A DNA stretch of 64,000 nt, from NCBI GenBank assembly GCA_047967505.1, contig CM106538.1, one strand, 5' to 3'. How positions within the stretch are numbered: position 1 is the first letter of the stretch; each line of letters starts with the position of its first letter. A model generated the notes under the pieces. The model was not told the DNA's origin and did no database searches. It saw nothing but the letters and a program-made list of their open reading frames with translations. Below, piece after piece: positions 29,487 to 64,000 of the stretch. Source of the DNA: Dipteris shenzhenensis (Eukaryota). Position numbers and translations under genes: made by a program.

Positions 29487-29492
29487 AGTTTT

Positions 29493-29810: not shown

Positions 29811-30222
29811 TCTGGTCGCCGGACTGTTTTCTGAGCCCCCTGCAAAAGAGTAACAGCAGATCCCGCGCCCCCCCCGATCTCTTCCTCTTCTTCTTCTTCT
29901 CTTTCTCTTTCTCTTCTCCTTCTCCTCTCCTCTCCTCTCTTTTTATTAAAGAGTAGGATTGGAACCCAAGACCTCCCCCTTCACAAAAGAAAGTCTTATC
30001 ATTGGGCCAACAAGTTGAAAGTGGTAAAAATGTACTGATTTTTGTTCATATATTGAAATCGCGGGAGCTGTAACTCTCTAACTGTAAGGAGTTTGCTCTT
30101 GCTGCAAAAAGCAAAAATATTTCATTTTATGTGCTCTATCCACATCTCTTGCTAGATCGCCAATTCAGAACTTCTCCAAGCTCACTTCACGGACACACGC
30201 CTCACGAGAAGGGTGGACATTT

Positions 30223-30633
30223 ATGTCACTTCTCGACGCGTTTAAGGAATTGGTGCCTGTTCTTTCGCACCTTACAGCTACCAATACACGAGATGTCTTC
30301 CTTGATCTTCATGTCGACCTTCAACGACTGATTGTCCAGTGCATTATTGATGGTGATGACGGGTGGAATGACACACCGTGGATGATTCATGGTGAAGAAG
30401 TACCGATACGCTGGGAGGATTTTGACTTTACTTCTGCTCATTGTGCGGTGATCGAACTACTTGCTGCTTCAGAGGTAATTAAAACGGTATCTTTCATCGA
30501 AGGGTGGGATGCTCCCCAAGCTTGGGGGGAGATTTGGCGCATCTGCTTGTTGATTCCTATGGAAAAGCTCGTCCTGAATGGTTTATTCACAATCTCATTA
30601 CAAAGGTTTCTAGGCCTTGGCTATGGTTGGTAA
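30223..30633 (+). CDS. Retrotransposon leader ORF1, 136 aa, unknown function
   Basis: ATG-started ORF whose TAA overlaps the next ATG (TAATG). Confidence 0.5.
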   Translation: MSLLDAFKELVPVLSHLTATNTRDVFLDLHVDLQRLIVQCIIDGDDGWNDTPWMIHGEEVPIRWEDFDFTSAHCAVIELLAASEVIKTVSFIEGWDAPQAWGEIWRICLLIPMEKLVLNGLFTISLQRFLGLGYGW

Positions 30634-30857
30634 TGTTTCGACCAAGGAATCCATTTGTACCTAATCAGCCTTTTGTGCCTCATTTCGAGCTTCAAATTGT
30701 AATTCTTTTTGGGCTTAAGATAAACTATCAACAAAGAATTGCAAGTTTATTTGGTGTTGAACGTTTAGCTCAAGTGTTGAATTCTCCCCACCCTCTCCTC
30801 CTACCTATCTTGGACTACCGAGAAACTTGGGATGTCCGCATTCTAGTCTTGGTGTGA
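30633..30857 (+). CDS. Retrotransposon leader ORF2, 74 aa, unknown function
   Basis: MFRPRNPF...RILVLV; bounded by TAATG and TGATG stop-start overlaps. Confidence 0.5.
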   Translation: MFRPRNPFVPNQPFVPHFELQIVILFGLKINYQQRIASLFGVERLAQVLNSPHPLLLPILDYRETWDVRILVLV

Positions 30858-31321
30858 TGACATCTTGGATTCTTCAATTTGATGGAGCTTACAAACCTTC
30901 GACCAAGGCGGCTGGCGTGGGTGTGAAGCTCACTTCACCGGGTGGTGAGGAGTATTGTTACAGCAAGTCTTCACCCGCAAGTACTTGCAATCAAGCTGAG
31001 TACTCGGTGCTCATTTTTGGGCTACAAAAGGCACAAGAACATCATGCCAAGCAATTGGAGGTGCAAGGAGATTCTCAACTAGTGTGTGAACAAGTTAGTG
31101 GAAGGTGGAAGGTGCGGAGCAAAGGCTTGGTTCCACGACATCAACAAGCCTTGGAACTTTGCAACCAATTTGAAGAGGTAAAAATTCAGCATATCCCTCG
31201 AGCTCGAAATCTTGTTGCTGATTTCTTGGCACGTGAAGCTTGTATTTCAATCACGCATGATGCGAGTGGAAGCGCCACCCCAACAAAGCCGCAAGCCACG
31301 AAGGAGGGTGATCGTTTGTAA
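30857..31321 (+). CDS. Additional (archaeal-type) RNase HI as a stand-alone ORF upstream of gag
   Basis: WILQFDGA, CNQAEY, VQGDSQLV and HIPRARNLVADFLA supply the four acidic RNase HI residues. Confidence 0.9.
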   Translation: MTSWILQFDGAYKPSTKAAGVGVKLTSPGGEEYCYSKSSPASTCNQAEYSVLIFGLQKAQEHHAKQLEVQGDSQLVCEQVSGRWKVRSKGLVPRHQQALELCNQFEEVKIQHIPRARNLVADFLAREACISITHDASGSATPTKPQATKEGDRL

Positions 31322-31457
31322 GGAATGCAAAGGTTGTGGTCATCATGAAACTAAGTGTTGGGCGTACTTAATACGAGTTCACCGACTTCGGAAGATCATC
31401 AGGAGGGTTCTCAAGGACATTGCTCAAAAGAAGGATGCCAGACCACACACCCCTTGA
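31257..31457 (+). CDS. Small basic CCHC zinc-knuckle ORF (66 aa)
   Basis: CKECKGCGHHETKC fits C-x2-C-x4-H-x4-C, flanked by Arg/Lys-rich segments. Confidence 0.6.
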   Translation: MMRVEAPPQQSRKPRRRVIVCKECKGCGHHETKCWAYLIRVHRLRKIIRRVLKDIAQKKDARPHTP

Positions 31458-31814
31458 AGAAATAGCATGGCGACTACAAGAACTGGAAGAAGCTGAAGGT
31501 GATGTGCAAGCTCTCCAACTGTTGACATTTGTCATGGCATTCTTGTTTGCCTTGATGAACAACCTCATGCAACGCCGCGCCTCTAACCCTCGCGTGTAAT
31601 GATCAATGTGATATCATGAGAGTTGGTCCTTTTAAGATTGTCTATGTGCTATTCTATGCTGAAGATTCTTCTCGTGTAATATTTCACACTACACCAGTCA
31701 CACCCTACCCTGCCTATGTGTGCTTTTTGGATGTATCTTCACCCGATTTTCAGTTCAAGCTTCCTCTTACTATTGTTCATCCATAGATAAGCCCCTCTTT
31801 TCCATCTTCCAAGC

Positions 31815-32765
31815 ATGGCTGACATTCCCGTGTTTTGTGGACGGGTAGAAGAAAATCCAAATGAGTATCTTGTGGCTTTCAAGCGCCGTTGTGTTTCTCT
31901 CAACTTTCTTACTGAAGACAGATGGCTATTGGTTCTTCCCACATTTCTAGAAGGTTTGGCTCAAGTGTGGTATGAGAAGCAAGCCGAAGATGTTCGCCAA
32001 AGCTGGCCAAGGTTGACAGCAGCAATGATTGAGTATTTCGGCAAAGAAGAGGAGACGGAGAATGTGTACCTGCAGGTGGCAAATTTGAAGCAGTCAGAAG
32101 GTGAGATGGCGCGTCGATATGTGGATCGAGCGGCCGTGCTCCTAGACCGTTTGATTGCCACACAGGAGGACAATGCCGGGTTTCGAGCTGGAATGACTCA
32201 GCATGTGCTGGGCTACCTTGTAGCAGGAGCGAGTGATGAATTCCGCCTCAAGCTTAAATGGGAGAATCCAGAAACTATGGTGCTAGCACATGAGATTGCT
32301 CAAAAGTTTGATAAAGTTCAGTCTGACCCCACTTCAAAGAAGATGATTGTCCCTCCGCATCCCCCTCAATTCCTGCAACAACAACCTGGGGGGTCTAACT
32401 CAGGGGCATACCCCCACCCCTCATCAGGGATGTATCCACCGCCTCCACCTCAAATGTATGGTCCTCCCTTAGATGCTTACCCTCAACAAGGTGGATATCC
32501 TCATCCTCTGCCTCAAAGATTTCCCCAGCCTCGCCCATGAGCTCCCCTCCTCTCTACTCCCGTGGCCCCTCCAACTAAAGAGGCCCCCCCTGCAACAGAA
32601 CCTGGAGTCAATGACTTAGCCAAGGTCCTGAATGATCTTTGGCTTGAGATGGTGGGCATCAGAAATCAAGCCAACCGCCCTCCAAGAGATCGTGCTAATG
32701 TTGTATGCTACGAGTACCACCAGAAGGGTCATTATCGCACAGAATGCCCAATATTCCGAGGGTGA
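31815..32765 (+). CDS. gag, with an in-frame TGA at 32538-32540
   Basis: Retrotransposon gag-like PVFCG..ENPNEYL and FLEGLAQVWY, a Pro-rich linker, and a degenerate knuckle CYEYHQKGHYRTEC in the same frame after the stop. Confidence 0.85.
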
Positions 32766-35700
32766 ATCTTCTAAGTGAGTCGGGCACTGAGGATTCTGAT
32801 GTGGAGATCCTTGATCTCAAGAAAAGAACTCGTGCTACCTCGGACCCCTCTCCAAACCGTGGACCGAGCTACCCCAGGAAGAAGGTGTCCTTCTCAAAGC
32901 CCTCAGATGCTGAGATGGCAGACCCACCAACAGAGAAGACTAAAAGATCTCGCAGGAGTAAGTGGTCACCCTCGGATTTTCCCATCGGCTCAGGGCAAGA
33001 GGACTATTCGGTCGTTCAAGACCTTGCTCATCGGTCTTTGAGCATCACACTCCCTCAACTAATAGCATTAACCCCTAAGGTTAGACGTGAGCTGCAGCAA
33101 GGTCTCTCAACAAGGAAGAGCAACAAAAAGGGAAAGGTACGAGAGGTATCTTCTATCTCTGAAGAAATTGATCGGCACCCACACACAATAGATGTCATCA
33201 TAGATAATTGCCGTGTCAAAAATGTGTGTGTTAATGGGGGAGCTGCATGTAATATCATGGTGCCCCGAATCATGAAGAAATTGAATTTGAAATGTACAAG
33301 GCGTTCCTCCACTCGAATCAAGGTAGCAGATGGTCGACGACTCGCCACCATGGGAGTCATTGAGGATTTGCCCATCACTGTCAATGGGTTGACCACCACT
33401 GTCAATTTCTATGTAGTGGACATTGAAGATACAGGCAGAAGTTACCCAGCCATACTCGGGAGACCATGGTTGAGAAAAAGTGATGCAGTCAGCTATTGGA
33501 AGACAGGACACATGTCTTTTGGTGCTTCCAAGGAGAAGATCCCGGTGCAACCTGGTGCCATGGAACCGGAAGAAGAAGAGGAGCATGACAGTGATACTAT
33601 CTCATCTTCTGTGTCTGAGTCCATGGAAGAATCAGACGGGAGGGACGAATTCTCAAAGGAGGAAGTTTACATGATGGGGGTGTCTCCGACCCTGCCACCT
33701 GTAGAAAAGATAACAGCTAGTCCTCAACAGCTCGAATCAATGCTTTCTCCAGACCTCACTCCAAGTGAGAAAGATGAGTTTCTTGAAATGTTCAAAGATT
33801 TCCCTGACCTCTTTGCAACTAGCTACCACCACCTTCGCCATGTGACTGCCATAGAGCACAAGATAGAGCTAAAGCCTGATGCAAAGCCTGTGGCTCAGAA
33901 GTATCAGAGATTAGGGCCCCTGCAGACCGACGCTTTGCGCTCAGAGTTGCAGAAGCTTGTAGAGGCTGGGTTTATTGTTCCGGTTCACAATACTGAATGG
34001 GTTTCACCAGTGGTAGTCATCCCAAAGGAAAACAACAAGTGGCGGGTCTGCATCGACTATAAGAAGCTCAATGCTGCCACCAAGAGGGATCATCATCCTC
34101 TACCCTTTCAAGACCTCATTCTTGAGAAGGTAAGTGGTCATGAGATGTATACTTTCTGTGATTGTTACTCTGGGTTTTATCAAATCAGAATTGCCGAGGA
34201 AGATGTGCTTAAAACCACATTTGCCACACCCTGGGGGACATTGGCATTCAAAGTAATGCCATTTGGCCTCACCAATGCTCCTGCCACCTTTCAAAGATTT
34301 ATGCAGATGGTGTTTGCTCCTTATTTGGGGGATTTCTTGGAGGTGTTTTTAGATGATTTCTGTATATTCTCATCACGTAAGGAGCACATCATGAAGGTTA
34401 GATTGACCTTCCAAAGGGTCAATGATGCAAATGGCAGTCTCAACCCTGAGAAATGCACCATTGGAGCCACTCAAGGGAGGTTATTGGGACATGTTGTCTC
34501 ATCCGAGGGCATCAAGCCTAACCCCGAGAAGGTAGAAGCCATCCTCAAACTCTCCCCACCTACAACCAAACGTCAGGTACGCTCATTTGTCAATCTAGCA
34601 GGATACTATCGCCGCTTCATTGATCAGTATGCTGCTTTGACATGGCCCATGACTATGCTATTGAAAGATGGGGTTGATTTTTCTTGGGATGAGGATTGTG
34701 ATCATGGTTTTGCACAAATCAAGAATGCTTTGGCTTCAGAACCCATTCTACGTAATCCAGACTGGTCAAAGACCTTCTATATCAATCCTGGGTTTGGTGA
34801 GCACACTCTGGCAAGTATTCTTCTCCAGCAAGGGGAGGATCGGTTCATGTATCCCGTTCGATTTGCTTCTCGACAATTGCTCGACACTGAGCGACGCTAT
34901 TCAGAGGCCGACAAGCATGCCTTGTCTTTGGTGTTTTGCATTGAGAAATTTAAGCATTATGTGGCTAGAAAGTCCTTCTTTATACTCACTAGCACTGGTC
35001 TTGCAAAGCAGGTTCTTCAATCACCAAATCCCATGGGCCGGTTGGCCAAATGGTTGGCAGTTCTACAAGAATATGATTTTTCTTTCAAAATTGTAAGAGG
35101 GGGTTGTTCCAACTTGAAGAATGCTTTGATTGATTTAGAGGAGTGCCTTGATGTAACCTTTGTAGCAGCCATAGAAGTTGGGGATCCTTGGTATGGTGGT
35201 ATCTACAAGTTTTTGACCGCTTTCTCCTTTCCTTCAGAAAGTACTAGCTATGAGAGAAAGAAGATCCGCAGAGATAGTAGGCGCTACACCCTCCTTGATG
35301 GGGTGTTGTACCGTCAAGGCATGGATGGGGTACTCAGATGGGCCATTGATGCAGATGAAGTGCCTAAGGTATTGAAGCATTATCATGATGGATTTTGTGG
35401 AGGCCACTATGCCAGTGACTATACAGCTAAGAAGATTTTACATGCTGGATACTATTGGCCGACCTTGTTCAAGGATGTCACTTTGTATTGCAAAACCTGT
35501 GAACCATGTCAATTCTTCGGTAGGAAGGATTTGCGTCCCGGGCAACATCACCCAGTGATGTCCATCCATCCGTTTCAGAAATGGGGAATAGATTTTGTCG
35601 GGCCCTTGCCCATGACTGCCCGCAAAAAGAAGTATCTTTTGGTAGCGACTCAGTATGTCACTAAGTGGGCTGAAGCTATCACCCTCTCTGCTGCAAATGG

Positions 35701-36505
35701 CAAGGCAGTTTCAAATTTCATATTTGAACGTATTTGCACAAGGTTTGGGACACCCATGGAGATAGTCTCTGAGCATGGGAGTCCATTCTTAAATGAAGCA
35801 GTGGAGTTACTCATGGATCGTATGGGCATTGATCATCACACTTCTAGCATCTATTATCCAGCATCCATGGGTCAAACAGAGCAGACCAATGGCCTCCTTT
35901 GTAAAACCATGGGAAAGATGGCCGCAGGGAACAGGAGCCAATGGGATCAGAAGGTCACTGAAGCCATGTGGGCTTACAACATCACTCATAAAACATCTAC
36001 AGGTCACACCCCTTTTGAGTTGGTGTATGGTACTGAGGCAGTTTTACCACTAGAGATAGAGATTCCGGCCTTGAGATTGGCACAGGAACAGAGGATGACA
36101 GAAGATGAACATGTAGAGGCCAGATTGGTACAACTTGAGAAGTTAGATGAAACCCGACGCCTTGCACTACACCAAACAGAGATCCAAAAGAATCGACAAA
36201 AGGCTCGATTGGATGCTAAGATTCGCAAGGGATGGGAAAGACACTTTGCTGAGGGGGATGTTGTGCTATGCTTTGATAACAGATTGGACCACCAAATGGA
36301 TAAGAAGTTTCTGCCACTGTGGGCTGGTCCATACAAAGTCATCAAAGAACGTAGCAATGGGTCTGTACAAGTTCAGGAGCTGCATGAACCATATGGCAAG
36401 AAGGTGATCAACAAGCGTTACCTCAAGCCTTTCTTTGTGCGTGATGGTCCCAGGCATGGAAATGCTATGCATTCCCTGCCTGGGGGGGGGAACTGTTATG
36501 GATAA
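32705..36505 (+). CDS. pol polyprotein (protease, RT, RNase H, integrase), 1266 aa
   Basis: VNGGA (protease site, D>N), ILGRPWL, WRVCIDYKKLN, MPFGLTNAPATFQR, VFLDDF, HHCC zinc finger, KWGIDFVGP and GPY; gypsy domain order. The ORF ends inside the 3' LTR. Confidence 0.97.
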   Translation: MLRVPPEGSLSHRMPNIPRVNLLSESGTEDSDVEILDLKKRTRATSDPSPNRGPSYPRKKVSFSKPSDAEMADPPTEKTKRSRRSKWSPSDFPIGSGQEDYSVVQDLAHRSLSITLPQLIALTPKVRRELQQGLSTRKSNKKGKVREVSSISEEIDRHPHTIDVIIDNCRVKNVCVNGGAACNIMVPRIMKKLNLKCTRRSSTRIKVADGRRLATMGVIEDLPITVNGLTTTVNFYVVDIEDTGRSYPAILGRPWLRKSDAVSYWKTGHMSFGASKEKIPVQPGAMEPEEEEEHDSDTISSSVSESMEESDGRDEFSKEEVYMMGVSPTLPPVEKITASPQQLESMLSPDLTPSEKDEFLEMFKDFPDLFATSYHHLRHVTAIEHKIELKPDAKPVAQKYQRLGPLQTDALRSELQKLVEAGFIVPVHNTEWVSPVVVIPKENNKWRVCIDYKKLNAATKRDHHPLPFQDLILEKVSGHEMYTFCDCYSGFYQIRIAEEDVLKTTFATPWGTLAFKVMPFGLTNAPATFQRFMQMVFAPYLGDFLEVFLDDFCIFSSRKEHIMKVRLTFQRVNDANGSLNPEKCTIGATQGRLLGHVVSSEGIKPNPEKVEAILKLSPPTTKRQVRSFVNLAGYYRRFIDQYAALTWPMTMLLKDGVDFSWDEDCDHGFAQIKNALASEPILRNPDWSKTFYINPGFGEHTLASILLQQGEDRFMYPVRFASRQLLDTERRYSEADKHALSLVFCIEKFKHYVARKSFFILTSTGLAKQVLQSPNPMGRLAKWLAVLQEYDFSFKIVRGGCSNLKNALIDLEECLDVTFVAAIEVGDPWYGGIYKFLTAFSFPSESTSYERKKIRRDSRRYTLLDGVLYRQGMDGVLRWAIDADEVPKVLKHYHDGFCGGHYASDYTAKKILHAGYYWPTLFKDVTLYCKTCEPCQFFGRKDLRPGQHHPVMSIHPFQKWGIDFVGPLPMTARKKKYLLVATQYVTKWAEAITLSAANGKAVSNFIFERICTRFGTPMEIVSEHGSPFLNEAVELLMDRMGIDHHTSSIYYPASMGQTEQTNGLLCKTMGKMAAGNRSQWDQKVTEAMWAYNITHKTSTGHTPFELVYGTEAVLPLEIEIPALRLAQEQRMTEDEHVEARLVQLEKLDETRRLALHQTEIQKNRQKARLDAKIRKGWERHFAEGDVVLCFDNRLDHQMDKKFLPLWAGPYKVIKERSNGSVQVQELHEPYGKKVINKRYLKPFFVRDGPRHGNAMHSLPGGGNCYG

Positions 36506-37483
36506 AATTGTCTAAGGAAAAAAGGCATTAATATGTGTGTGTGTTTGTATATGTGGCAATAGTATAATAAAATATGGTGTGCATAGGGCCCAGGGTTGAG
36601 GTGGCAGGGCATGACCATGTGCCACCCTTCCATGTAAGAGGACCCATAAGGTGTGTTGTACATAATCCATGATAGTAATATTATAAAATGCAAGGTGGCA
36701 TGGCTCCTCCATGTGCCACCCCTCCACCTAGGCTGCATTTAGTGAGATATGGCTCAAAGTCCATGGGAGAAGCAATATAAAATAGGTGGAGATGGATATT
36801 ATATTGAGTTATACCCTCCATATGAGATAGGCCCACGTGGGGGAGGTATAGAAGGACCAAGAGAGCTAGTTAAATAATGGGGAAAGTAGGATGAGGTGGC
36901 AAGATTCCTTGTGCCAACCCTCCACTTGTCCTCCTAGAGGTTTGAACATATTATAAAATTGGAAAGAGACCAAGGGATATCATAGACTTGAGATATGGGG
37001 CTTGATTTATGTGGAAAATTGAGGCAAAGGGTTGTCGCACACAATTGAGAGTGCGTACCCACCTAGCCCACATGGGAGACTTTTCCACACACACCATGCA
37101 TGTGGGAGGATACATTAATGTGGAGAGACCCCCTCTTTTGGCTATAAAAGGAAGGGGCTATTCCTTGATGAGACACGCTCATTCTTGTAAAGCCACCTAG
37201 CTAGTATTTTGATATTTCCCTCTCATCCCTTCTTTCAAATAAAGTATGGTTCTCTTCCCTTGATGTCTACATCTCAACATTCCTCCTCCTATCATGTACA
37301 TGCTTCTCTTCCCTCTCTCCCTTTCCCCTTGTGTCATAGTCTCCCTTTTCCTTCCCTCCACTTCTAATTCCTTTTTCACCCCTATGACATCCCTTCGCCC
37401 TCTCGATCTCCTTTTCTCTATGGCCTTTGAGCATCGCCATACTTAGCCTCTAGCCTCTGGTCTCGATAACTTTTCTGGCTAAA
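36494..37483 (+). repeat. 3' LTR, preceded by a G-rich PPT (36482-36492)
   Basis: Direct repeat of 28496-29486. Confidence 0.95.
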
Positions 37484-39779
37484 AGTACACAGAGCATAAT
37501 AATGTTTTTTTGGATGTATGTAGGGTCCAAGCTACAATGGTGGAGTTTTACAACATGAAAGCATGGGGTAGGTTAAAATTATATTGTTTAGAGAGCTGGA
37601 ATTTTTATTGAAATCTTTTCTAATCATGTAAATCTTTTAATCTTTCAGATTGTGAAGGAAAGTTAGTATTTGTTATCAAATTGGATGAGTGTGAGGTTGT
37701 AAAAGGCCACAAGTTGGAGAGGGTTAGTATTACTTTGATGAATAAAGCCCTCGAACATGCCAAAGATAAAGATTTTAGTGTGCAATCGAAAAAGCACATT
37801 TGGTGGCTTGTCGGGTTTGAACTTCCTAAAGAGACACACTCATTCTTGAAATGGGTATTTGATAGATCTCCAATTCTAAGTGTCATAAATGCGCAAACGG
37901 AAGGAGAGTTGCTTCAAGTTGAAGGGTTCATATCATTTAAAGTTGAATGGCACATGGCAGGAGATCTTAAGACATTGAAGTGTATATTTGGAACGGAGTT
38001 GAGTGCAAATGCGACATATTCATGTCTTTATTGTATGCACTCACACCAACCTTGAGGCAGTAACATAGGAATACATAGAGGGAAAGAGCAAATAAAAAGA
38101 GGAAAAGACTTTGGGAATGCTAAAGATGTAATGAATGACATCATAGATTATGAGGCTAACAAACGGATGTATTGGAGCAATGGAGTAATGGGTTATAATC
38201 AGGATGCTGCACCCAACAGAGATCAGAACAATAAAAATTGGGATCCAATTTTAAACATTCCATTACAAAGAGTGCATTTTTGTGTGTTACATGCGGAGAT
38301 GCGGCTCATTGATAAATTGCTTTACTTGCACATTGTATATGCATGGAACATGAAACCGAAGGAGAGAGCGGCATCATGTATAGCAAGGGCCAAAGCTTTA
38401 CTCTCGAGCATGGGTCTACATGGGGGGAATGTAAAGCTAATCAAAGACGCACAATTGTCAGGAAAATCGGGAAATCTTCCAAATAAAGTGTCCATGGGAG
38501 GCTCTAAGGCACGAAGGTTTTTGTCCAATCATGGAAAACATCGATTAAATCTGCATTGGAATTATTGGAAAAAGTTATGTGATTGCACCACTAATTTGGA
38601 AGCTGATCCTCATGTTAGAACCTTGAGAATATGTGTTTGGAAAGAATTGGATAATCTGGTAAAGATCTTGAGGAAGCCTTCCATAGACGATGATGATGTG
38701 CAACTATATAAAGTCATCGTGAAAGAGTTCATTGAAGCCATGGTAGATGGATGGGGTGAATCACACATTACTCACTACATGGTGTGTTTGGTCTTTGCTA
38801 TTTTCAAAATTATAATTGCAATCAATTTATTATTGTTTACCTCATGTGTTTTTTCTATGTATGCAACACATTCTTTATGCTCATGGTCCATGGTTTCTTC
38901 GCCAATATGGTTCCTTGAATGCTTGGACTGCCCAAGGGATGGAAAAGTCTCATTATAGAGCTCGAGGTGCTTATTTCAAGAGTATGCGACATGGAGGGGG
39001 GATTAATGGAAGTAATGCTCTTCATGAGATGTTCGAGTGATTCTATCGTGGTATAGTCAGCTCCTCCTATGCAAGGAATAAAGCTTTGCAAACGGAGTTA
39101 GCCCAAGCAGTTCGTCGAACTCAAACGAGTAAAAGAAGGCATTCATGGATATCTTTGCAAGCTTCCCAAAAACATAGAAGTTGGATAGCAACCAAAAGTC
39201 GTGTTGGAAAGCGTTAGATCGCTAAACCAAGTGTACTTTGATGTTAATTAAAATCACACTTCAATATTTCTTGTGGACATTTGATTAATTGGCTCTTTGA
39301 AAAAAACAAGCGTTAAATTTTGTACTTGTGGACCCAACAAGGGTGGGCGATCAGAAAAGGTTGGGGAAGCGACCTCACGGGAGTTCAAGGGGAATTTCAA
39401 AAACCCCTTAAATAAGTTTTTTTCCCAAAAACAAACACCCCTCCTCTTCACGTAATTTTTTTCTAAAGTTGAATTTAAAAACCAAATGTTATAATGAACT
39501 AAGTAATTTTTTTGATAAATATCCCTTCTTTACAATGCACGTGGTACACTAAAATTTTGTGAGGTTAACCCCCGAGGGGACGATGACAAATAGGGGGGGG
39601 GGAGGGGTTGAGGGGGGTAAAGGGGGAAGGGAGGGGGGGGCTAACTAATAATGATGCACAAAATAAATATACCCCTATATATATGCAAATACCTTCATTT
39701 TCTCAGTACCACCAGTACTCTCTCATACTAGTACATTCCTTCCTACCATTACATTTCCCATAGCCCCACCATCATCGAC

Positions 39780-40870
39780 ATGGCAAGAATAAAGCAGACT
39801 GGAAGACCGGTAACTCCTAATCCCTCCCGATGTATACAATGCAATGATCGAAGAGAGAAGAAAGAGGAGGCAAGAGGAGGAGGAGAGGACAGAAACCAAT
39901 GAGTAAACAGATGATGATGAAGAAGATCATGGGGAGCAATCCAATTCTCAGAGTCAGCTCAAGAGCCAGAAAGCAAACCAGAAGAACAGGAGCGCAAAAG
40001 ACGCAGATTGGAAGAATGGGCCAGAGGACAAGAAGATGCCAGGAAAATGCGGATTCAATTGGCTCAACAGTAAAGGGCACAAATGGAGAGCCAACAACAA
40101 CGACCCGCATGGCACAATGCTACTTAGGACTTTCCACATTCTAGACAGGGTGGAAAATCTTTGCCAGAATTGCATCGCACAGCAAAAGGAAAAGGCAAAG
40201 CTCGTAGTAGGCGAGGTGGAGGTGGAGGTGGAGGTGGAGGTGGAGGTGGGGAGCAATCCAATTCTCAGAGTCAGCTTAAGAGCCAGAAAGTAGACCAAAA
40301 GAACAGGAGCGCAAAAGACGCAGATTGGAAGAATGGGCCAAAGGATAAGAAGATGCCAGGCAAATGCGGATTCAATTGGCTCAACAACAAAGGGCACAAA
40401 TGGAGAGCTAACAACGACGACCCGCATGGCACAATGCTACTCAAGACTTTCCACATTCTAGACAGTGTGGAAAATCTTTGCTAGAATTGCATCGCACAGC
40501 AAAAGGAAAAGGCAAAGCTTGTAGTAGGCGAGGTGGACGTGGAGGTGGAGGTGGAGTCCCTAGAAGACACCGCAGAAAGCCTCAAAGGAAGGCGCTTCAA
40601 GAGATAAGAAAGTATCAAAGTAGTGTGAACCTTCTAATCCCAAGAGCTCCGTTCGCTCGATTGGTGAAAGAGATTATGCAGTCCTACAGGGACAACTATC
40701 GTATTCAATCAATCGCACTGGTTGCCATACAAGAAGCAGCAGAAGGGGTGATCATAACCCTTCTTGAGGACACAAACTTGTGTGCAATCCATGCCAAGAG
40801 GGTTACGATCGTGGCAAAAGACATGCAGCTAGCAAGGCAGATCAGAGAAGACCCACAACTTAGGCCATAG
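39780..40870 (+). pseudogene. Histone H3-like gene of element A with an extended, internally duplicated N-terminal region
   Basis: Starts MARIKQTGR. Histone fold [28 protein letters not shown]...[17 protein letters not shown] stop and frameshifts lie in between; TATA-like TATATATA at ~39676. Confidence 0.85.
39931..40556 (+). repeat. ~317-bp tandem duplication inside the H3-like gene
   Basis: GGGGAGCAATCCAATTCTCAGAGTCAGC begins at 39931 and 40248; both copies end in (GGAGGT)n. Confidence 0.9.
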
Positions 40871-41149
40871 ATCAGATTTTTTGTTGTATTCACTATGAAC
40901 ACCAATTTTGTGCAAAGATGGTTGTAAATATTTTTTGTAATAGAATACTTTGAAAACTATTTTTCTTGTAGATTTTGGACTTTGAGCTTTCATTTTCAAG
41001 TGGATTCTTGCAGTGTATTATTTACTTCCATATCTGATGTATGTACATAATGTAATTGATTGTTGATGGTGGCAAATAATCATGGTAGAATGTAATTAGT
41101 CACTGGTAATTAGTCAATAATCATGGTAGAATGTGATTAGACACTAGTA

Positions 41150-41745
41150 TGTGATTGGGGATGCATCCCCCCAAAAAACAAAAACAAAAAAAAGCCCCTG
41201 AGGGGCCCTGGCCAGACGCCTGCACGACTTTGGGCCAGACGCCTGCGCGCACCAGGGCCCCTCAGGGGCTTTTTTTTTGTTTTTTTTAATGTATTTGTTT
41301 TTTGTGTGTGTGATGGGTGTGTGTGTAAGTGATGGGGGAAGCATCCAAAAAAAAAAAAAAAAAAAAAAGCCAAGAGGCCCTGGTGCGCGCAGTCACAACT
41401 TTGGGCCAGACGAGCCCAAAGTCACGCATGCACGCACCAGGGCCTCTCAGGGGCTTTTTTTGTTTTTTTTTTGTATTTGTTTTTTTTTTGGTGTGATGGG
41501 TGTGTGATGGGGGTAAGATATGCCCCAAAAGAAAGACATAGCCAAAACAAAAAAACAAAAAAAAGCCCCCGAGAGGCCCTGGTGTGCGCAGGCGCGACTT
41601 TGGGCCAGACGGCCCAAAGTCGCGCCTGTGCGCACCTCTTGGGGGCTTTTTTTTGTCTTTTTTAATTGGGGAATGCATCCCCCATCACTTACACACACAC
41701 ACCCATCACACACATAAGAAACAAATACAAAAAACAAAAAAAAGT
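41150..41745. repeat. Array of three GC-rich fold-back units bounded by A/T tracts
   Basis: A-tract, GAGGCCCTGG..., TTTGGGCCAGACG core, ...CCAGGGCC.CTCAGGGGC, T-tract; repeated three times with variation. Confidence 0.75.
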
Positions 41746-43014
41746 GCCTATGTCATGGCCACCTTTCGATCAAAGACGCAAAATTTTTGCCTAAATCAAT
41801 TTGCTTCTCCATGCCTGAAATGTGTCCCAATTTATACACCCATATCTTGATCATTAGCATTGAAATTTGGGACCCACGTTGAATCATGGTTTCATATGTC
41901 ATGTTGTCACATCATTTTAATCCATTGTTGCTCATAGCTATCAGTGCATTTGTTAACCTTACCATTTTGTATCAAACTTCATTGTAGTCATCACCAATGC
42001 CTTTAGAATATCAAGGCACGCTTCTAAAGAGATTTTGGCCATTTCTAGCATACTTTATAACATTTTACACCATAAGGACCTACATCTTCAATTGTGTGTA
42101 GCACCCCTTAGCCACAATTTCCATAAAAGTCAAAACCCAATCTCCTATGCTAGGATTGAGTCAGTCATATGCTTGTTCCCTATCCAAATTTGATAATACA
42201 CAAACACCAACCAAGTATACGTGTTGGATTATTGCCATCTCCATGTGTAACCATTGGAATAAGTGAGAGCTTGCCATCTCAATCATGGAGCATATATCCT
42301 CTTATTTTACATTAATCCTTCCAACTAACCATGCACATAACTAAATTAGCCACCATATTATTGTTCTATTTTCCTCCTAGGTTTGGGATGCAAAACATTC
42401 CTAGTCCCAAGATGAATCTAAATATGGAAGGGTTTGAGATTGTGCATCCAATTTAACCTTTTGTTGCTATCTTGATTAGAGTTCATCGGCAATCTTGATC
42501 TTGTCTATTCATACACCAAGTAACTTGAAGCATTCTTAAAACCTTTGATAAGGGAATGCACTTTTCTTCTAAATCAACCGTATATTTAAATTAAGGATAC
42601 ACTAAAATCCAAGAAATGAAACTCAATAATAATGCAAAACACCACCCATCTAGAAAACAAGAGAAATATATATTAAATTTTGATGTCTATACAATATTTT
42701 AGATGCACTTTTTACAAAATATTTGCTTCCTTAGCTTTAGCTACTATTGCTGCTCTCCTCTGAGTTGACAAAATAGTGGATTCACTGAAAGATTCTACAA
42801 GCTGCCCAGCATCATAAACACCTACCGAAGCACCCATAGCAGCAACCTCTTCCTGCTAGTGTCTCTCCAAAAGTAGATAGTGCCAAGTCCCGCCTCACCA
42901 AAATACACTTGCGCGCAGAAGGGGGTAAAGGCACAAGGGAGACTAGCTTTGAAAGTGCCTTGCACTTTATCATCTCCTCCTTCCCATAAGGGGAGAACAA
43001 AATATGGAAGCACA

Positions 43015-43046
43015 CATTAGGGAAAAAGGGAACTCATTTTGGGGCC
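43015..43046 (+). repeat. Left TIR of element B
   Basis: CATTAGGGAAAAAGGGAACTCATTTTGGGGCC. Confidence 0.9.
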
Positions 43047-43415
43047 CTGTAAGAAATTCACTATTTTTTGATTTATTTCTCTCCTAAAAGACCTCAAAAA
43101 TAGTAAAATACGGAAACGTGGCTCAGATTTGTCAGTAAGGACTACAGAACTGTCAATTCAAAAAGGAATAAGATAATCTTTTGTCTGACTAACACGATTT
43201 TGTATTAAATATCCTCTTAGATTTTTTTTTGTTTACCAAAGATTCCGCATCTCTTTGGCCGACGTGTGCAGGTCTTTCATTAAGAGTCCATCATTGAACT
43301 TAGTGATTGCAAGTTTTCAAAATATTCACATGGATACCGCCACACTTCCATGATTCATGTTACAAAACGACGATGAGATTGAAAAACAAACTTCGCAACC
43401 TGAGGAGCACAAAAA

Positions 43416-46151
43416 ATGGCCGATACTAGTGAGTCACTATCTGAGAAGAAGCGATTACACCATCTTCACATCGACTTGGAAGAACAATATGCTCCAGCAC
43501 AAAAAAGACGAAAGGATACGGTGCTGAATGCTCAACAGCGGGAAAATATGAGAAGAGAAGGGCTTCAACATATTGACTTATGGTGCGACGGAAGCATATA
43601 TCCAAAATGTCAAGTAAAAAACTCTACACCTCCATTTGTCAATCCCACCACATTACTGAGGTTTGCCGGCGATGGACAAAATGGACTTCTTGGTTATATT
43701 TCAGCGCAATCTGCATTTGTGGAAACGTATAAAATGATGTACCTACAAGAAAAGGGGGCCAAGATGGAGGAGATAGCCATTCGTGGAAAATTGGAGCAGC
43801 AGTTGCAGAATGAAATCGAGGAGCATTCAAAGAGTAAAAAAGAATTGACAAGAGCAAGAAAGAAGAGAACCGTGCTTGGAGACAGACAACGTAGCAGGAA
43901 GATTAAAAACATTGCAAATTTGAAGGCTGGGACTGGTGGATGCAAGCGACGAATTCAGGAAGCAAGGTTAGATTGAAATTTATCATTTTGTATACTCAAA
44001 AAGGCTCTCTTCCAGACTATATCTATTTCGTTGATTGTCGCAAAATAAGAATGGAGGTGCTGAATAATATAGTCATATAATGTTGTTATTACAGGAAATT
44101 ATTGGAGCCTGCAAAAGAAAATATGGACCCGAACCTTCTTCCTGTTAAACAAATGAAAGGATTGCTTTCTTGCGGTGTAGCAAAAGGTTTGATTGAGGAA
44201 AAAAAATACAAAACAGTCAAACGCAATGTTGTAGAGGACTTTGTATCCAATAATCAAGTTGATGGCACTATAATCCAAGAGGCTCTTGATGTTAGTGGAG
44301 TTAGCAGGAAGGGATATAGTTCGATTTTCCATGCGATATCCTCAACTTTGAAAGATCAAAGGATTAAACGAGTTTTACTGCCAAATCCAGCAACCGTGTG
44401 GAGGATAAGAGGTCATTTGAATGAAAGTATAGATGAATTTATTGGGCAGTATATCCATATTGAAGAAATATTTCATGGTGTTAAAGGAACCACTGTGTAT
44501 GATCCTTGGAACAATATATTTTTAGATCTGCAACAACTTCAAAAAAGAATGGTCGAGTTTTATGGAATAACATTTGAGGAGTGCAAAGGCATTTTGAAAT
44601 TTGTTATCAAACTGGATGAGTGTGAGGTTGTAAAGGAAAAGAAAATGGAAAGAGTTACTATTACATTGATGAATGGAGCGATTGATACATCATTGACTGA
44701 AGCGAGTTCAAAGTATTTTAGTGTGCAGTCAGAGAAACACATATGGTGGTTAGGCTCGTTCCAGGTATGATCATGGGCTGTTTTATACTTGATTTTGGTC
44801 ATTGTTTTCAAATCTGATATAGTAATACTTTTGTTTTCTATAATCTCGCAGGTGAAGACCGAAGACCATGAAACACTAGATTGGGTGTTTCATCACACGA
44901 AAATACCAACAATAATCAAAAGACAAGTGCAAGGCGAGAATCTCCATGTTGCAGGAAAAGGTGATTTTCAAGTAGAGTGGCACATGGCCGGGGATCTTAA
45001 AACACTTAAGTGCATGTATAACATTAGTAAAGGAGGCAACTCAAAGTCTCCTTGTCTTTACTGCAAAGAATCAGCTCAAGTAATGGATTCAAAATGGTGG
45101 AAGAGAGCACCTAATAGAGATAAAGTTGACCCTGACTTCAAGGCCATTCTGGACATTCCACTATGTAATGTTCACATCTGCACATTGCATGGTCTATGTC
45201 GAATTATTGAGAAATTGGTATTTTTATATATTGGATTTGCTTGGAAACTCCGTCCCGAAAAAAATAGAAAGGATGCTCTTCAAGCATTGGAAAAAGTGTT
45301 ATCCGATATAGGTCTGCATGGAGGAGATGTTCAAATCACAAAGGATTTTAAAAAGTCTACCAATGGCAAGGAGGTACCAATCAAGCCCTCTATTGGTGGT
45401 GTTAAGGCAAGAAGATTCTTGTCTCGACCCAAACACAGTAAGCAAGTAAGGCAAGGTAGAGCAGTTTCAAAGATTAATTATGGATTGTGGAAGCAAGTCC
45501 ATAATGCTGTGAAAGATCATGAGGCAGATGGGGAAGCACGAAATAGGAAGGCAGAGGTGTGGAGGTCTCTTGATCAACTCTTCATGTTCTGTGACAAAGT
45601 AACATGGACAAAGAGTGATTACAAGAACTTTGAGGAGGCAATTAAACATTTTGGGAAGTCAATGAAAGACGCGTGGACAGCCTGCAATATAACTCACTAC
45701 ATGGTAAGGTTCTGTCTTTTTCTTTTACTTAAGTGTGATCCTCTTTTTTTTATTACTTACTATGCATTCTTATGTCTTACAGCATATCATATACAACCAC
45801 CTTCCCTATTTTGTCAAAAAGTATGGATGCCCAGCTATTTGGTCTACCCAAGGCATGGAGAAGTCTCACTACATGGCACGTAATGCATTTTTTAGACACA
45901 CACAACACTATGGAGGGAGTCAGAAGGCGAATAGTCTGAAGGAAGTCTTCCAATGGTTTTACCGAGGCATACTACAAAGGCTGCATGCTAAAAGAAAAGT
46001 TGCTAGCTCCAAAATCAAGCTTGCTTTTCTTCTAGCCCAAAAGCAAAGACGAAGACAAGCTCTAGACAATTCAATTGCAGCAAAGAGACATAGACAGTGG
46101 AGGGAATCGAAGATATTTAGAAACCATAAATGGACAAGTAAACATGAATAG
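43416..46151 (+). CDS. RAG1/Transib-like DDE transposase; exons 43416-43966, 44095-44764, 44852-45703, 45783-46151; ~813 aa
   Basis: GT-AG introns join the ORFs in frame. VIKLDEC (D1), EDHETL, AGDLK (D2), CLYC, CTLH, HIIYNH and QGMEKSH (E) occur in RAG1-core order. Confidence 0.85.
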
Positions 46152-46474
46152 GACTCATTTGTAACTTATTGGAGTTATGTCCACATGTTTTCAAACTCAT
46201 TCAATAGAAATTTTTTTAGTGGAACAAGTGACTCTTGGTGTTATGCATGAAAAAAATTTCAATGTGAAACATATGATCTGAACTTAATACAATTTGTTTA
46301 CAATTTCAATATATTGTTCATTTAATATTTAACGACACCACTCTATGTAAATGTACAAATCATTTCATCATCAACTTATTAATCATTTATACAAGATCAT
46401 ACCAGATATCAAAGACTTTATACAAATCAGTTCAAATTTAATATAATGTTTGTGCTATATTCGATGACTAAATC

Positions 46475-48163
46475 CTATTTCTCCCAGGGCCTGTTCATCG
46501 GAACTCTCTTTTTGATCTTGATTGGAGTCTTTTTCTTCTTTATTGGCTTGATGTCGACTGTCTCTTTATCCTTTTCTTCAGCTCTCTCCACCTGTTCCTC
46601 TTCTTGGACTGTGTGGCCTGATGCAATCATGGGTGGCTCTCGAAACCTTACAAGCTGGTGTTTTCCATAGCCCTCCAGATATTTGGGGTCCTTAACACCA
46701 CATGCTAATGCATAAGAAGTGTAAGACAAAAAGTAAGCGGCCCTAGAGGCCTGCTTATTCACATAATCTCCAAATATATCTATGGCAGACAACCTCTCTA
46801 TCAAAATGATCTTTTCCTTTTGCCATGAAAGAGCATGTCCACCTAAAGCCCTGGACAAACATTTTAGGAAGTAAACAATGGCTTCTCCATTGTTGCTCAA
46901 CTGCCTAAGGTAAATCAAGATCTTGGCACTGCCTAGATCATGAATATAATGAGCTAGGCCTGACATTTTGCGAAACCCAACCTGCCTGCTTCCACTTGAT
47001 CTCTGGAGGAATGTGTCATCCTCAATTTGTAGCTGCAACATATCAAAGGATTGGAGTGAGACAATACACAACCTACAAAACTAAAGTTAAGCAGAAGTCA
47101 AAGTATATGATTTGAAGTACCTTCTCATTTTCATCAGCAACAAGCAGTTCATCTTTCCAAAGATTTATCCCTCTCCCTTCTTGTACAGCCTCTTCTCTAG
47201 TCTTTTCTGTGTATAGAGCTGAGAGATTCATAGCTCCCTGTGTGAGCTGGAAGGCAGCTTCATCTGGCTCTTGGAACTTTTCAGCGTCTTTGAAACAAAA
47301 TGAAAGGGCCTCTACAGGATCAAACATTGTTTCCAAAGCCAGAAGTGATTGGTCATCCTCTATGTCAACCTCCTTGTCAAGCCTTGAAGCCTGGGCAATA
47401 AGGGAAATGGCATAGTCCTCCCTCAAATCAAACATACACTCTATATCATGGAGGAAAACATAATCCTTTCCACCAATCAACACACCTGGAAGCATGGGCA
47501 CTGCATAGTTGCTGCTCTGAACATCAAAATCTTCAACTGGCTCTGCTCCCCTCAGAGTTTTATTCCTCAGTTGAACAAGGTCAAGAGCAGCCACTTGCAG
47601 CCCCTCATCCTGAAGGTTGATATCTTCTTCTTGCTCTGCCATTTCAGAGCCCAAAGAAACATCCTCCTTTTCAGAAGCTTCAGATGTGTCTTCTTCTTCT
47701 GTTTCCTGCCCTTGTTCATCCAAAGACTCCTGACTGAAGACAATGTACATGAGAAATGCCATGCTCTCCTCCAGCACTCTGCACTTTCTGGTGTGCAAAG
47801 TAAAGTTGAATTTATAGTGATCAGGCAGGCTGTCAAATCTTCTGCTCACATGGTACCTCAACCTGTCATTGGAGACAATATGATTAATGTGCACAAAAAC
47901 CTTTTCACCTCCCACAATTCTTCCTGCCTCTGTCAGTTCTTTGAAGGCATCCCAATAGTCTGAAAGAAAATCTTTGTGTTGCTCCAGTACAGAGCTCATT
48001 GAGAACTCCATGTTGAATATACTGTGGTATAAATGGAAGTTACTCTGAGCCTTGCATTTGTGAAGAAACTCAAATAGGAGAAAATCTGGAGAACTGTCCT
48101 CTTCTGGTTCCATTTGTTTTTTGATGGAAGAATCAGCACTCTGCTCCAGCCTCTTCTTTTTGC
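46475..48163 (-). CDS. Gene X of element B, acidic protein of unknown function (exons 48163-47121 and 47032-46475; 5' exons unresolved)
   Basis: Two long ORFs joined by a GT-AG intron, with a conserved paralogue in element A. Confidence 0.75.
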
Positions 48164-48437
48164 CTGTTCAAAAACTTATATACTATGAATTCTATATGCT
48201 GACATATGCAATCAGTGAATGCATTGTATATCACCAGATAATTCCTTCATGACATCTCATCACTCACCTGGTGATTGCTGAGGTTTTATTATAGCAGCAG
48301 AAAAGTCCAGCTTCCTCTTGAAAGGTGGGGCCTGGGAGCCAGCTGTTCCAAAACAAAAACATTTCTCATCATCAAGGAAGATCTCCACAGGGCTAAAGGT
48401 AGCAAATTAATGAGGTAGAAGTGAGAAACAAATAATA

Positions 48438-48930
48438 CACAGGAATTTGCAGCAAAATGCGATATGGGCTGTTTAGAGAATTGTAAACCACTCTCCTCGC
48501 ATTTTGTTGCAAATTCTCAAATTCTGGTCATGTGCATGTCAAATCAAGAACTTGGTTCATCTCAGTGATTCCTGGACACTATGATCTCATATGCAAGAGA
48601 AATAATGGAATGAGTGATACTATTCATGAGGAATGTGTCAACAACAGGAATTTGCAGCAAAATGCGATATGGGCTGTTTAGAGAACTATAAACCACTCTC
48701 CTCGCATTTTGTTGCAAATTCTCAAGTTCTGTTCATGTGCATGTCAAATCAAGCACTTGCTTCATTTCAATGATTCCTGGACACTATGCTCTCATATGCA
48801 AGAGAAAAAATGGAATGAATGAAAATTTTCATGAGCAAGGAGTCCACAACAGGAATTTGCAGCAAAATGCGATATGGGCTGTTTAGAGAATTCCAAACCA
48901 CTCTCCTCGCATTTTGTTGCAAATTTCTTG
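48438..48930. repeat. 205-bp tandem repeat with a hairpin core (3 cores)
   Basis: GAATTTGCAGCAAAATGCGA...TCGCATTTTGTTGCAAATT at 48443, 48648 and 48853. Confidence 0.9.
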
Positions 48931-49648
48931 TTTCTGTTCATATCAACCTACAATCTAATTTCTGGGTGATTTACCACATTGTGGAAGAAGGATGGAGCTG
49001 AGTGAAGACATTGGGACATAAAAAATCCAATGGATGGAAGAAATAAATGTTGAAAAACATTGAAACCAAACTAGAACTCTGACCTTTTTTTTCCTTTTCC
49101 ATGCTGATTGAGTTGCACTGGTAAATCTCCTGCTCTTTCTCTAGCTTGAACCTTGCACTCTAGGTAACCTGGAGATCTGGCAGTACTGTCTTCAGGCAGG
49201 CTGCAGTCTGGATGGAGTGTGCTGGGTAGGAAAGAATCAGAGAGAAAGGATCAGGAGAGAGTCGTGGCAGGGATGAGAGATTGGAATCCAGGGGAGGGAA
49301 AAGTGGTTGTGGTATTCATGATGAAATAATGAATGGCACAAGTTCCAAGGAATAAAGTGTACTTTCACACGTGCCAGATTTCAAACTCCAAGAGATCTGG
49401 GTCCCATCCACACGTGTGAAAAACGACTAGATTCCACACGTGTGGGATTTAGTGATTCTTTAATTCATTTTGCACTTCTTTGTGGTATCCTGTTTTAGAA
49501 CTCTTGCCCTTTAGTCTCTGCTCTCTTGCCTCCCTACCTCCATACTCTGCAGCATCAGCATCTTGTCCAGCAGCACAGAATCATCCTCAGCACAGATTAC
49601 TCCTCAGCAGCACAGCACATCCACAGATAGACTCCAGGTCAGGAAGAA

Positions 49649-50580
49649 TGGGTTCTCCCCTTAGTCTCTGCAATCTTTTTGCCTAAAATAGAAAAAATAC
49701 ATACTGTATGGAAATGCATAGACTCAAACCAAGACAAAGAAATCACTGTAGGAAAGCAGATCTTCAAGTGTGATATTTGCATGTGATCTTCTTGCATAAC
49801 CTCCATTCATACTGTATTTGGTTGGAGAAACATAGAAATCACTGTAGGAGTGCACCAGCATGTCATTTAGAAAATTTGCAGCAAAATGCGATGTGGACCT
49901 GTTTGAAATTCCAAACTGCTCATATCGCATTTTATTGCAAATTTCTCTATTTGGCTTCTTCCACCCCTGTGATTGCCTTTTCTTTGTGAGAACATGTTCT
50001 GGTTTTTTGACTTCCATAGCTGTAGTCTTCTTGCATAAACTCCATTCATACTGTATTTGGCTGGAGAGACAAAGAAATCACTGTAGAAGTTCACCAGCAT
50101 GTCATTTCAGAAATTTGCAGCAAAATGCGATGTGGACCTGTTTGAAATTCCAAACTGCTCATATCGCATTTTATTGCAAATTTGTCTATTTGGCTTCTTC
50201 CACCTCTGTGATTGCCTTTTCTTAATGAGAACATGTCTGGTTTTGTGACTCCCCTTAGTCTCTGCAATCTTCTTGCCTAAAATAGAAAAATTACATCCTG
50301 TATGGAAATGCATAGGCTCAAACCAAGACAGAGAAATCACTGAAGGAATGCAGATCTTCAAGTGTGATATTTGCATGTGATCTTCTTGCATGACCTCCAT
50401 TCATACTGTATTTGGTTGGAGAAACATAGAAATCACTGTAGGAGTGCACCAGCATTTCATTTAAAAAATTTGCAGCAAAATGCGATGTGGACCTGTTTGA
50501 AATTCCAAACTGCTCATATCGCATTTTATTGCAAATTTCTCTATTTGGCTTCTACCACCCCTGTGATTTCCTTTTCTTTG
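49649..50580. repeat. Second repeat array with the same hairpin core (3 cores)
   Basis: AAATTTGCAGCAAAATGCGA...TCGCATTTTATTGCAAATTT at 49872, 50111 and 50466; ~49650-49990 is repeated at ~50250-50580. Confidence 0.9.
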
Positions 50581-50643
50581 TTAGAACATGTTCTTCATGT
50601 CTTTGATCTCTTTCCAATCCTTTGTATGCAGTTTTTCAGAGTG

Positions 50644-63941: not shown

Positions 63942-64000
63942 CTGCCAGAGAGAAAGGTGCTTCTTTATGGGGCTTCACACAGTTACAAGCTCGCTATAAT

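Follow-up and report, generated by a model that had tools for sequence, protein, structure and literature searches.

The interval 39780–40870 of the 64,000-nucleotide stretch of Dipteris shenzhenensis contig CM106538.1 analyzed here (the window) carries a broken gene derived from histone H3, which is probably a decayed accessory gene of a cut-and-paste DNA transposon of the CMCT group. We call this transposon element 1; a related transposon in the same window, element 2 (43015–54759, plus strand), serves as the comparator. The product of the accessory gene would consist of three parts, namely an N-terminus resembling H3 residues 1–8 without K9–S10, a lineage-specific insert in which an acidic stretch precedes a segment containing Cys, His and Trp, and a near-canonical H3 fold. 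The fold, the tail motif, the breaks in the reading frame, a duplication private to this copy and the linkage of the H3 gene to a transposase in four diverged elements are established. An earlier annotation of the window (the original prediction) had described the interval as a transposon-borne H3 variant that lacks K9 and contains a long insert between tail and fold.

Architecture and decay of the H3 derivative

An ATG at 39780 on the plus strand opens an open reading frame (ORF) that reads MARIKQTGRP (39780–39809). The tail is a copy of H3 residues 1–8 in which R2 and K4 are kept, position 9 is a proline and S10 is absent, and it thus reads ARIKQTGRP in place of ARTKQTARKS with its ARKS (K9–S10) motif. 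This is the start that the original prediction had given, with K4 retained and K9 replaced by proline. The motif M[AGV]RxK[QSE]xx[RKN] has just two occurrences in a six-frame reading of the window, one at 39780 and the other at 50644 in element 2. It is not due to chance, since each site is followed by an H3 fold on its own strand and none of 200 block shuffles contained two or more occurrences (mean count 0.02).

The H3 fold begins at about 40550 and extends to 40870 on the plus strand, including the stop codon at 40868–40870. It matches the Pfam family Histone (PF00125) with an E-value of 1.8e-35 and 122.3 bits (cut-off 26.4). The 60 best-matching solved chains are all H3 or H3 variants, from plants as well as animals; H3.1 and H3.3 are the closest, and the best match is a plant-type H3. 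Aligned to canonical H3, the fold retains C110, H113, R116, T118, D123, L126 and I130, residues of the H3–H3' four-helix bundle and of the contacts with DNA, and it carries the substitutions R63 to P and R49 to Q. No insertion is present in loop 1, whereas in the H3s of a family found beside related transposases in metagenomes (L007 and L008, see below) this loop is longer by about 15 residues. The centromeric variant CENH3 is characterized by an extended loop 1 and a divergent tail. We conclude that the interval ends in a genuine, near-canonical H3 fold, as had been proposed.

The nearest relatives of the fold in a protein database clustered at 90% are three proteins, P0196, P0212 and P0249, at 65–67% identity; the closest, P0196, is 67% identical over 99 amino acids (aa), which is the top identity in that database. 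The window's own H3 ORF is not among its entries. In a representative library, none of the best 150 matches exceeds 64% identity, and all are canonical H3s or fused gene models. P0196, P0212 and P0249 are H3 variants of 138–139 aa encoded on contigs of up to 126 kb; they start with ARTKQT[HQ]T[RH][QK]R and include the sequences RWRPGTVAL and LLIPKMPF.

Between tail and fold, the frame offset by one base to the right from that of the ATG stays open over 39814–40293, save for a TAA at 39904. It encodes, in this order, an acidic stretch, a Ser/Gln/Lys-rich linker, a Trp/Cys/His segment and a (GGAGGT)n run. The acidic stretch, EERRKRRQEEEERTETNE*TDDDEED, is purine-rich (39810–39929, plus strand) and holds the breaks. 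The remainder forms a first unit (39930–40246, plus strand) with the pattern KCGFNW...HKW...H...H...CQNC, followed directly by a second unit on the same strand (40247–40563). Self-comparison shows the two to be a direct tandem repeat of 317 bp, 94.5% identical over 310 bp. Unit 2 is read in a different frame, shifted by two, because 317 is not divisible by three, and it contains a TAA at 40409, which falls in the fold frame, and a TAG at 40482, which falls in the insert frame. The original prediction had noted both the acidic stretch and the KCGFNW...H...CQNC segment, which are indeed present, and had described the segment as duplicated in tandem. The duplication exists but is no part of the element's design: it is damage private to the window's copy, because a contig of one of the sequencing runs discussed below (run X2) joins 40138 to 40468 and so has a single unit.

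A single-sequence AlphaFold (AF2) model of a 110-aa reading of the insert predicted a beta-hairpin and two helices, with residues 48–95 at a predicted local distance difference test score (pLDDT) of 70–85 and a mean pLDDT of 65. Structure matches to this single-sequence model were within noise (Foldseek, best E-value 0.42; VIA-align, best Z 5.3). Neither the region 39907–40293 nor any part of it taken had a Pfam match at E-values up to 10. The insert likewise had no usable match and a low recognition score in a protein-language-model atlas, and a metagenome scan with it gave 594 pattern matches and no relative. A tblastx comparison with the window and with 26 metagenome loci returned low-complexity matches only.

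As it stands in the window, the gene has no intact ORF. Its pieces lie in three reading frames (first codon base modulo 3: ATG 0, unit-1 insert 1, unit-2 insert 0, fold 2), and three stops interrupt them, TGA at 39900 in the ATG frame, TAA at 39904 in the unit-1 insert frame and TAG at 40482 in the unit-2 insert frame. The copy, taken as a single locus, is a pseudogene, in agreement with the earlier description of a stop and frameshifts. The ORF would have been destroyed by the loss of 14 letters at 39811–39813 (relative to a copy in run X1), two point stops, the private 317-bp duplication and a one-base offset before the fold.

Related copies were sought by comparing contigs of four public DNA runs with the region 39650–40950. 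Run X1 derives from one organism (A), and runs X2 and X3 from another (B); five DNA runs shared 0.05–0.08 of the stretch, and no RNA run was listed. The contigs of X1 are mostly 90–99% alike to the window's copy and those of X2 and X3 about 92%, while X4 covers hardly more than low-complexity sequence and the conserved core of the H3. In the runs of these two other organisms, related copies are present at multiple depths. Differences among copies are mostly transitions.

These contigs bear directly on the continuity of the gene. One X1 contig has 13 extra letters behind 39811 and one behind 39813; worked out by hand, these 14 letters introduce no stop and shift the ATG frame into the insert frame. 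Another X1 contig differs in length by nine letters within 39819–39940, which keeps the frame. All contigs of X1 to X3 that cover position 39904 (four in X1) have a C there, so that TAA becomes CAA. Because the 14 letters, the nine-letter difference and T39904C combine in this way, a single open frame leads in the genome of run X1 from the ATG through the acidic stretch into the insert, to at least 40032. The ATG segment thus very probably belongs to the H3 derivative, as the X1 contigs support one ORF for this segment, the acidic stretch and the insert. Further downstream, the single-unit contig of X2 (1091 letters) has a net gain of 19 letters within 40468–40950, which is the +1 modulo 3 needed to pass from the insert frame to the fold frame. 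It is likely, in our view, that tail, insert and fold make up one protein in intact copies. Codon usage agrees over the whole insert: log-odds trained on the elements' own genes and on the pol gene of a neighbouring long terminal repeat (LTR) retrotransposon score +13.2 for the insert frame over 39814–40236, against -35.0 and -12.5 for the other two.

Two features flank the gene. A G-rich run (39593–39640) and a TATATATATGCAAATA stretch (together 39593–39690) precede the ATG at 39780 by about 90–100 bp and suggest that the H3 gene may have a promoter of its own. Just 3' of the gene, at 41147–41743, there are three tandem units of about 180 bp, each of them an internal palindrome in which A/T runs flank GCCCCTGAGGGGCCCTGG...CCAGGGCCCCTCAGGGGC.

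Association with a CMCT-like transposase

The H3 gene of element 1 is located 0.56 kb downstream of a transposase-like gene on the same strand. The 5' part of this gene (27821–28390) and its 3' part (37486–39217, with an in-frame stop at 38053) are collinear in tblastx with the better-preserved gene of element 2 (43857–46112), to whose segments 43857–44467 and 44498–46112 they correspond, respectively. The transposase gene is split by a Ty3/gypsy-type LTR retrotransposon (28502–37486, plus strand), recognized by its LTR pair and its pol domains. The two LTRs (28502–29489 and 36500–37486) are 99.5% identical over 988 bp, and the long gag-pol ORFs are located at 31791–32540 and 32699–36505, the latter being pol with RVT_1, RNase H and integrase domains. 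The retrotransposon is young, and its presence identifies element 1 as old and inactive. A search around element 1 revealed no inverted repeats.

Neither the transposase pieces nor the homologous gene of L007 matched a Pfam family. Relatives in the protein database are P0001–P0005, at 42–52% identity. An alignment of 11 sequences (A1) contains a conserved D in KLDE, a second D in WH.A.DLK, C..C, H....H in VHxCxLH and a later E in GMEKSH, in columns that are invariant or nearly so; the 3' part of the element 1 gene holds them as KLDE, WHMAGDLK, CLYC, VHFCVLH and QGMEKSH. The consulted part of PMC12730594 assigns EnSpm/CACTA, Mirage, Chapaev, Transib, Plavaka, ESTA, Lanisha and RAG1 to the CMCT clade and defines the layout D-D-C(2)C-H(4)H-E for EnSpm, Mirage, Chapaev, Transib, Plavaka and RAG1. 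The transposase of element 1 has this layout. Because its D, D, C(2)C, H(4)H and E match that definition, we regard the element as CMCT-like by motif, in no named superfamily. The CA...TG termini of element 2 are a further likeness to the clade. On the side of differences, no Pfam transposase family or named superfamily is matched, and no target-site duplication was recognized. The neighbours of P0001 in the atlas, which serve as a lead only, are clusters of DUF1280, RAG1 RNase H, Plavaka and Transposase_21.

Element 2 is delimited by terminal inverted repeats of 32 bp (43015–43046 and 54759–54728) that match in 30 of 32 bases and begin with CATTAGG, giving 5'-CA...TG-3' termini; no target-site duplication was seen in its flanks (...GCACA and CTAGG...). 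It encodes a transposase-like gene (43404–46151), an H3-like gene and fragments resembling Ulp1. The H3-like gene, 4.5 kb after the transposase, starts at 50644 with MARTKSTARQ... and matches Pfam Histone at 4.6e-26. It is followed at about 51752–52294 by Ulp1-like exon fragments, whose match to Peptidase_C48 (E-value 6.8e-4, 20.0 bits) falls below the cut-off of 20.7. The H3 gene of element 1 had been predicted to carry no protease, and indeed, when 25000–43400 was compared with element 2 by tblastx, no match to these protease-like exons was found 3' of 40870. The two H3s are only 42% alike over 84 aa (tblastx), and the transposase and H3 genes are collinear in the two elements, which bears out their proposed relationship. 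A third copy of the element 2 terminus, at 5764–5876, is 78% identical to 54759–54646 over 117 bp, with one mismatch in the inverted-repeat core, and faces rightwards; another element of this family appears to end there. Long minus-strand ORFs at 46475–48167, 52945–54379 and 55422–57417, in or just outside element 2, match no Pfam family. Those at 52945–53832 and 56590–57417 are similar by eye and suggest a further accessory gene of the element 2 family, present twice.

The order of transposase and H3 gene is found beyond the window. Metagenome contigs were scanned with the transposase alignment, which gave 26 loci. With tblastn searches using both window H3s and a profile search of the ORF pieces, an H3-like ORF was found in two of the 26, L007 and L008, where it follows the transposase on the same strand at a distance of 110–140 bp. 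Linkage cannot be assessed on most of the remaining 24 contigs, given their short length, and because the H3 gene of element 2 lies 4.5 kb from its transposase, the absence of H3 from short contigs is no evidence against it. Transposase and then H3, on the same strand, is thus the order in both window elements, L007 and L008, and the proposed membership of the H3 derivative in a transposon-like unit is borne out. In a tree of the transposases (33 rows, 594 columns, quick search), a split with support 100 separates a group that contains element 1, L007 and L008 from a group that contains element 2.

The H3s of these four elements share a signature: the IRKLPF of canonical H3 is IP[KR]APF in all of them. 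The L008-type H3 forms 12 protein clusters of 62–94% identity with intact ORFs; IP[KR]APF also occurs in the 10 full-length proteins of this family in which the stretch is intact, and P0314 and P0321 differ from it by one residue each. Among 429 stored proteins, no version with APF occurs outside the transposon set, and only four other H3s (P0196, P0212, P0249 and P0266) have the related IP[KT]MPF. Plant CENH3 presumably also has a proline at this position. On the sequence evidence, the pattern fits an accessory gene that has long travelled with its transposase better than chance adjacency.

The original prediction had stated that both window H3s keep K4 and lose K9. This is true of the two genes themselves, with P in element 1 and Q in element 2 at position 9, but it is not a rule of the family. 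L007 and L008 have R there, the 12 database relatives of L008 have K in six cases and R in six, P0196, P0212 and P0249 have R, H and H, respectively, and P0266 has K. Each of the four elements has an H3 start of its own that retains R2 and K4; in the 12 relatives of L008, K4 is present in 12 of 12 and S10 in none. The common feature is therefore the retention of R2–K4 together with the loss of the ARKS context rather than the loss of the lysine as such.

A tree of the H3 fold had been proposed as the means to distinguish single from independent capture. Our tree (67 rows, 101 columns) comprises 17 H3s of transposons or of the IP type, together with 50 of the 116 single-domain H3s obtained from the representative library and the database clustered at 90%; rows at least 90% alike were removed, multi-domain gene models were left out, and named host H3.1, H3.3 and CENH3 are absent from it. 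The H3 of element 1 groups with P0196, P0212, P0249 and the L007/L008 family at 85/74 support, and that of element 2 forms a very long branch (4.25) that is unplaceable. In approximately unbiased (AU) tests, neither a clade of the two window H3s (p 0.488) nor a clade of all 16 IP-type rows (p 0.472) was rejected; non-rejection is not proof, as long branches attract each other. The check as run leaves the choice between single and independent capture unsettled.

In L007 (3059–3238) and L008 (2587–2856), another ORF begins after the H3-like gene on the same strand and runs to the end of the contig. These ORFs start with MVRRKITPRR and MVRVKKTPTR, respectively, continue with Ser/Pro-rich sequence and may represent a second H3-tail-like gene of the element.

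Points against and alternative explanations

Several observations weigh against the reading as a three-part protein encoded by a transposon. The insert has no detectable relatives or assignable fold in Pfam, the atlas, the metagenomes, Foldseek or VIA-align. Over the Cys/Trp segment alone (39950–40200), the codon score is a tie, at -0.1 for the insert frame and 0.0 for the fold frame. The stretch is poor in T (14%) and open in several frames on both strands, and the length of an ORF is of little information here because such T-poor sequence gives long open frames on either strand. Among the runs examined, an intact copy was not recovered from the contigs, and none of the listed contigs of any run spans all of 39650–40950. 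The 19 extra letters of the X2 contig are unplaced within 40468–40950, and would fit the fold frame by chance in one case out of three; a further 13 letters gained by this contig in 39835–40138 do not suit a simple intact ORF. A hand count of the differences listed among copies gave, by codon position, 8/6/4 for the insert frame and 5/6/3 for the fold frame; because there is no excess at third positions, the copies seen are dead and drifting neutrally. BLASTP of the acidic stretch against P0318 gave no match there (E-value 3.0 elsewhere in the protein), and a tail profile of the L008 family, run against all ORF pieces of the window, left the tail of element 1 unmatched at E-values up to 10. 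In the H3 tree, element 1 joins the other IP-type H3s at no more than the 85/74 given above and element 2 is not placed. A likeness seen by eye between the acidic stretch and the tails of L007 and L008 (ERTETNEQ against ERTESDQQ and DRTISDEH) was dropped, as it is unsupported by BLASTP and by the tail profile.

One alternative is that the insert is noncoding. A 10-codon exon, MARIKQTGRP, would be spliced from a GT at 39810 to an AG at 40148 and joined to the fold and the sequence just before it to give an H3-length variant, and the Cys/Trp "domain" would result from a T-poor intron that happens to be open, or from reading the tail out of frame. If only one repeat unit is present, the ATG and fold frames coincide and the GT and AG are in phase 0 on both sides. 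The product would have about the length of H3, and P0196, P0212 and P0249, the nearest relatives of the fold, have tails of ordinary length. The fold frame is also open far upstream once the copy-specific stops are set aside, and both the lack of relatives of the insert and the tied codon score over 39950–40200 agree with this alternative. However, the candidate intron has only 14% T, and plant introns are U-rich. The 14 additional letters of X1 fall right at the donor site that splicing would use and switch the reading from the ATG frame to the insert frame. Every other copy seen has CAA in place of the TAA at 39904, and the difference in length of the acidic stretch is divisible by three. 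The log-odds over 39814–40236 favour the insert frame as well. The fold frame read upstream as an H3 tail (GGKSLPEL...) was rejected, its likeness to the H3 tail not being significant by BLASTP, whose alignments to H3 relatives start at GGV. We therefore regard splicing around the insert as unlikely and prefer the continuous three-part protein.

A second alternative, which we hold to be similarly improbable, concerns the origin of the gene: host H3 genes or pseudogenes may have been captured separately and passively (by transduplication or in the manner of Pack-type elements), with no role and with tails that drifted. The fold of element 1 is near canonical H3 while that of element 2 is very diverged (end branch 4.25), the two are just 42% alike over 84 aa, the tree leaves their common origin unsettled, and tails do drift in dead copies. 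There is a published case of hAT elements that captured H3 passively and amplified it (consulted part of PMC6710886). Against separate captures stands the transposase–H3 order, which recurs in four elements placed on both sides of the deepest division in the transposase tree. R63P and IP[KR]APF are common to all four, and four other H3s of the 429 share them only in part. R2 and K4 are kept in each element's own start, and the L008-type H3 exists as 12 clusters at 62–94% identity with intact ORFs. The AU tests, moreover, reject neither the clade of the two window H3s nor that of all IP-type H3s.

That the gene is instead a host H3 variant or a domesticated former transposon gene beside transposon debris, comparable to P0196, P0212 and P0249, is very unlikely: its closest fold relatives (65–67%) are such 138–139-aa variants on contigs of up to 126 kb and no inverted repeats surround element 1, but the gene carries several kinds of damage, the presence of related copies at multiple depths in the runs of two other organisms indicates a repeat family, and its position after the transposase is that seen in L007 and L008.

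Possible role, known systems and other features

An intact protein of this type could pair with H4 and enter nucleosomes, and nucleosomes built with it would be unable to bear H3K9 methylation in the usual sequence context. Another possibility is that the free tail competes for proteins that bind the H3 tail. It is conceivable, though doubtful, that the protein blunts silencing of its element by K9 methylation through one of these routes, as a nucleosome component or as a decoy for H3-tail binders.

Taken further, and tentatively, there may be an old and widespread RAG1/Transib/EnSpm-like lineage with an H3 of its own as a core accessory gene, represented here in a probable plant and in eukaryotes sampled by metagenomes. 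Its H3 would have lost ARKS, would have kept R2 and K4 at the very N-terminus as well as a nucleosome-competent fold and could seed silencing-resistant nucleosomes or soak up silencing factors that bind the tail; the lineage of element 1 would have added the module of acidic stretch and Cys/His/Trp segment. The known cargo of transposons includes enzymes and regulators that act on silencing, and a core histone, if true, would alter the substrate of silencing instead. Such a family would add a natural set of H3 tails without the K9 motif to research on histone mimicry. The window's copy is dead, and its value is that of a pointer to the family.

Plant transposons have been linked to another kind of cargo: Hoen et al. 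are said to have described, in 2006, Ulp1-like (Peptidase_C48) domains carried by them. Element 2 is similar in this respect, given its Ulp1-like fragments after H3 (below the Pfam cut-off), whereas the H3 gene of element 1 stops right after the fold without a protease.

The closest published parallel comes from fungi, where hAT DNA transposons have taken up and multiplied H3-like genes in what has been treated as passive capture (consulted part of PMC6710886). In the literature searched, from which Repbase Reports and non-open journals fell outside scope, these fungal hAT cases were the only ones found, and no H3 gene in EnSpm/Transib-like elements was found. The hAT-borne H3 of the Dothideomycetes Pyrenophora tritici-repentis and Pseudocercospora fijiensis is likewise an H3-derived cargo that multiplies with its element and decays in dead copies. 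It differs from the gene studied here in four ways, one of them being the host, which is probably a plant in our case. The fungal transposase is of the hAT type, while ours is of the D-D-C(2)C-H(4)H-E type and has no hAT match in Pfam. The fungal events are captures of a housekeeping gene, whereas the H3 described here is present on both sides of the deepest transposase split, with shared substitutions of its own. Finally, the long insert in the tail is a feature of the element 1 copy that the fungal hAT-borne H3 does not share.

Accessory genes that act on silencing are also known: the consulted part of PMC12730594 lists VANC in Vandal MuDR elements, SET in HarbingerS and MuDR elements of Phytophthora and TET/JBP in fungal transposons. 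By analogy, the H3 gene may be placed beside these as an accessory gene of DNA transposons plausibly directed at the host's epigenetic silencing. VANC, SET and TET/JBP are regulators or enzymes, whereas the cargo here is a predicted core histone of the nucleosome. The accessory genes treated in that part of the CMCT paper (PMC12730594) are of the TET/JBP, SET and VANC types, and a histone is not mentioned there.

The window as a whole is a eukaryotic repeat landscape, probably that of a plant, with reverse transcriptases of the copia and gypsy types. On its minus strand, at 63585–63974, there is an exon-like ORF with ELYYAGSHGMDI and a weak match to Trehalose_PPase (E-value 0.0022, below the cut-off), one of the few hints of a host gene and of a plant origin in the window.

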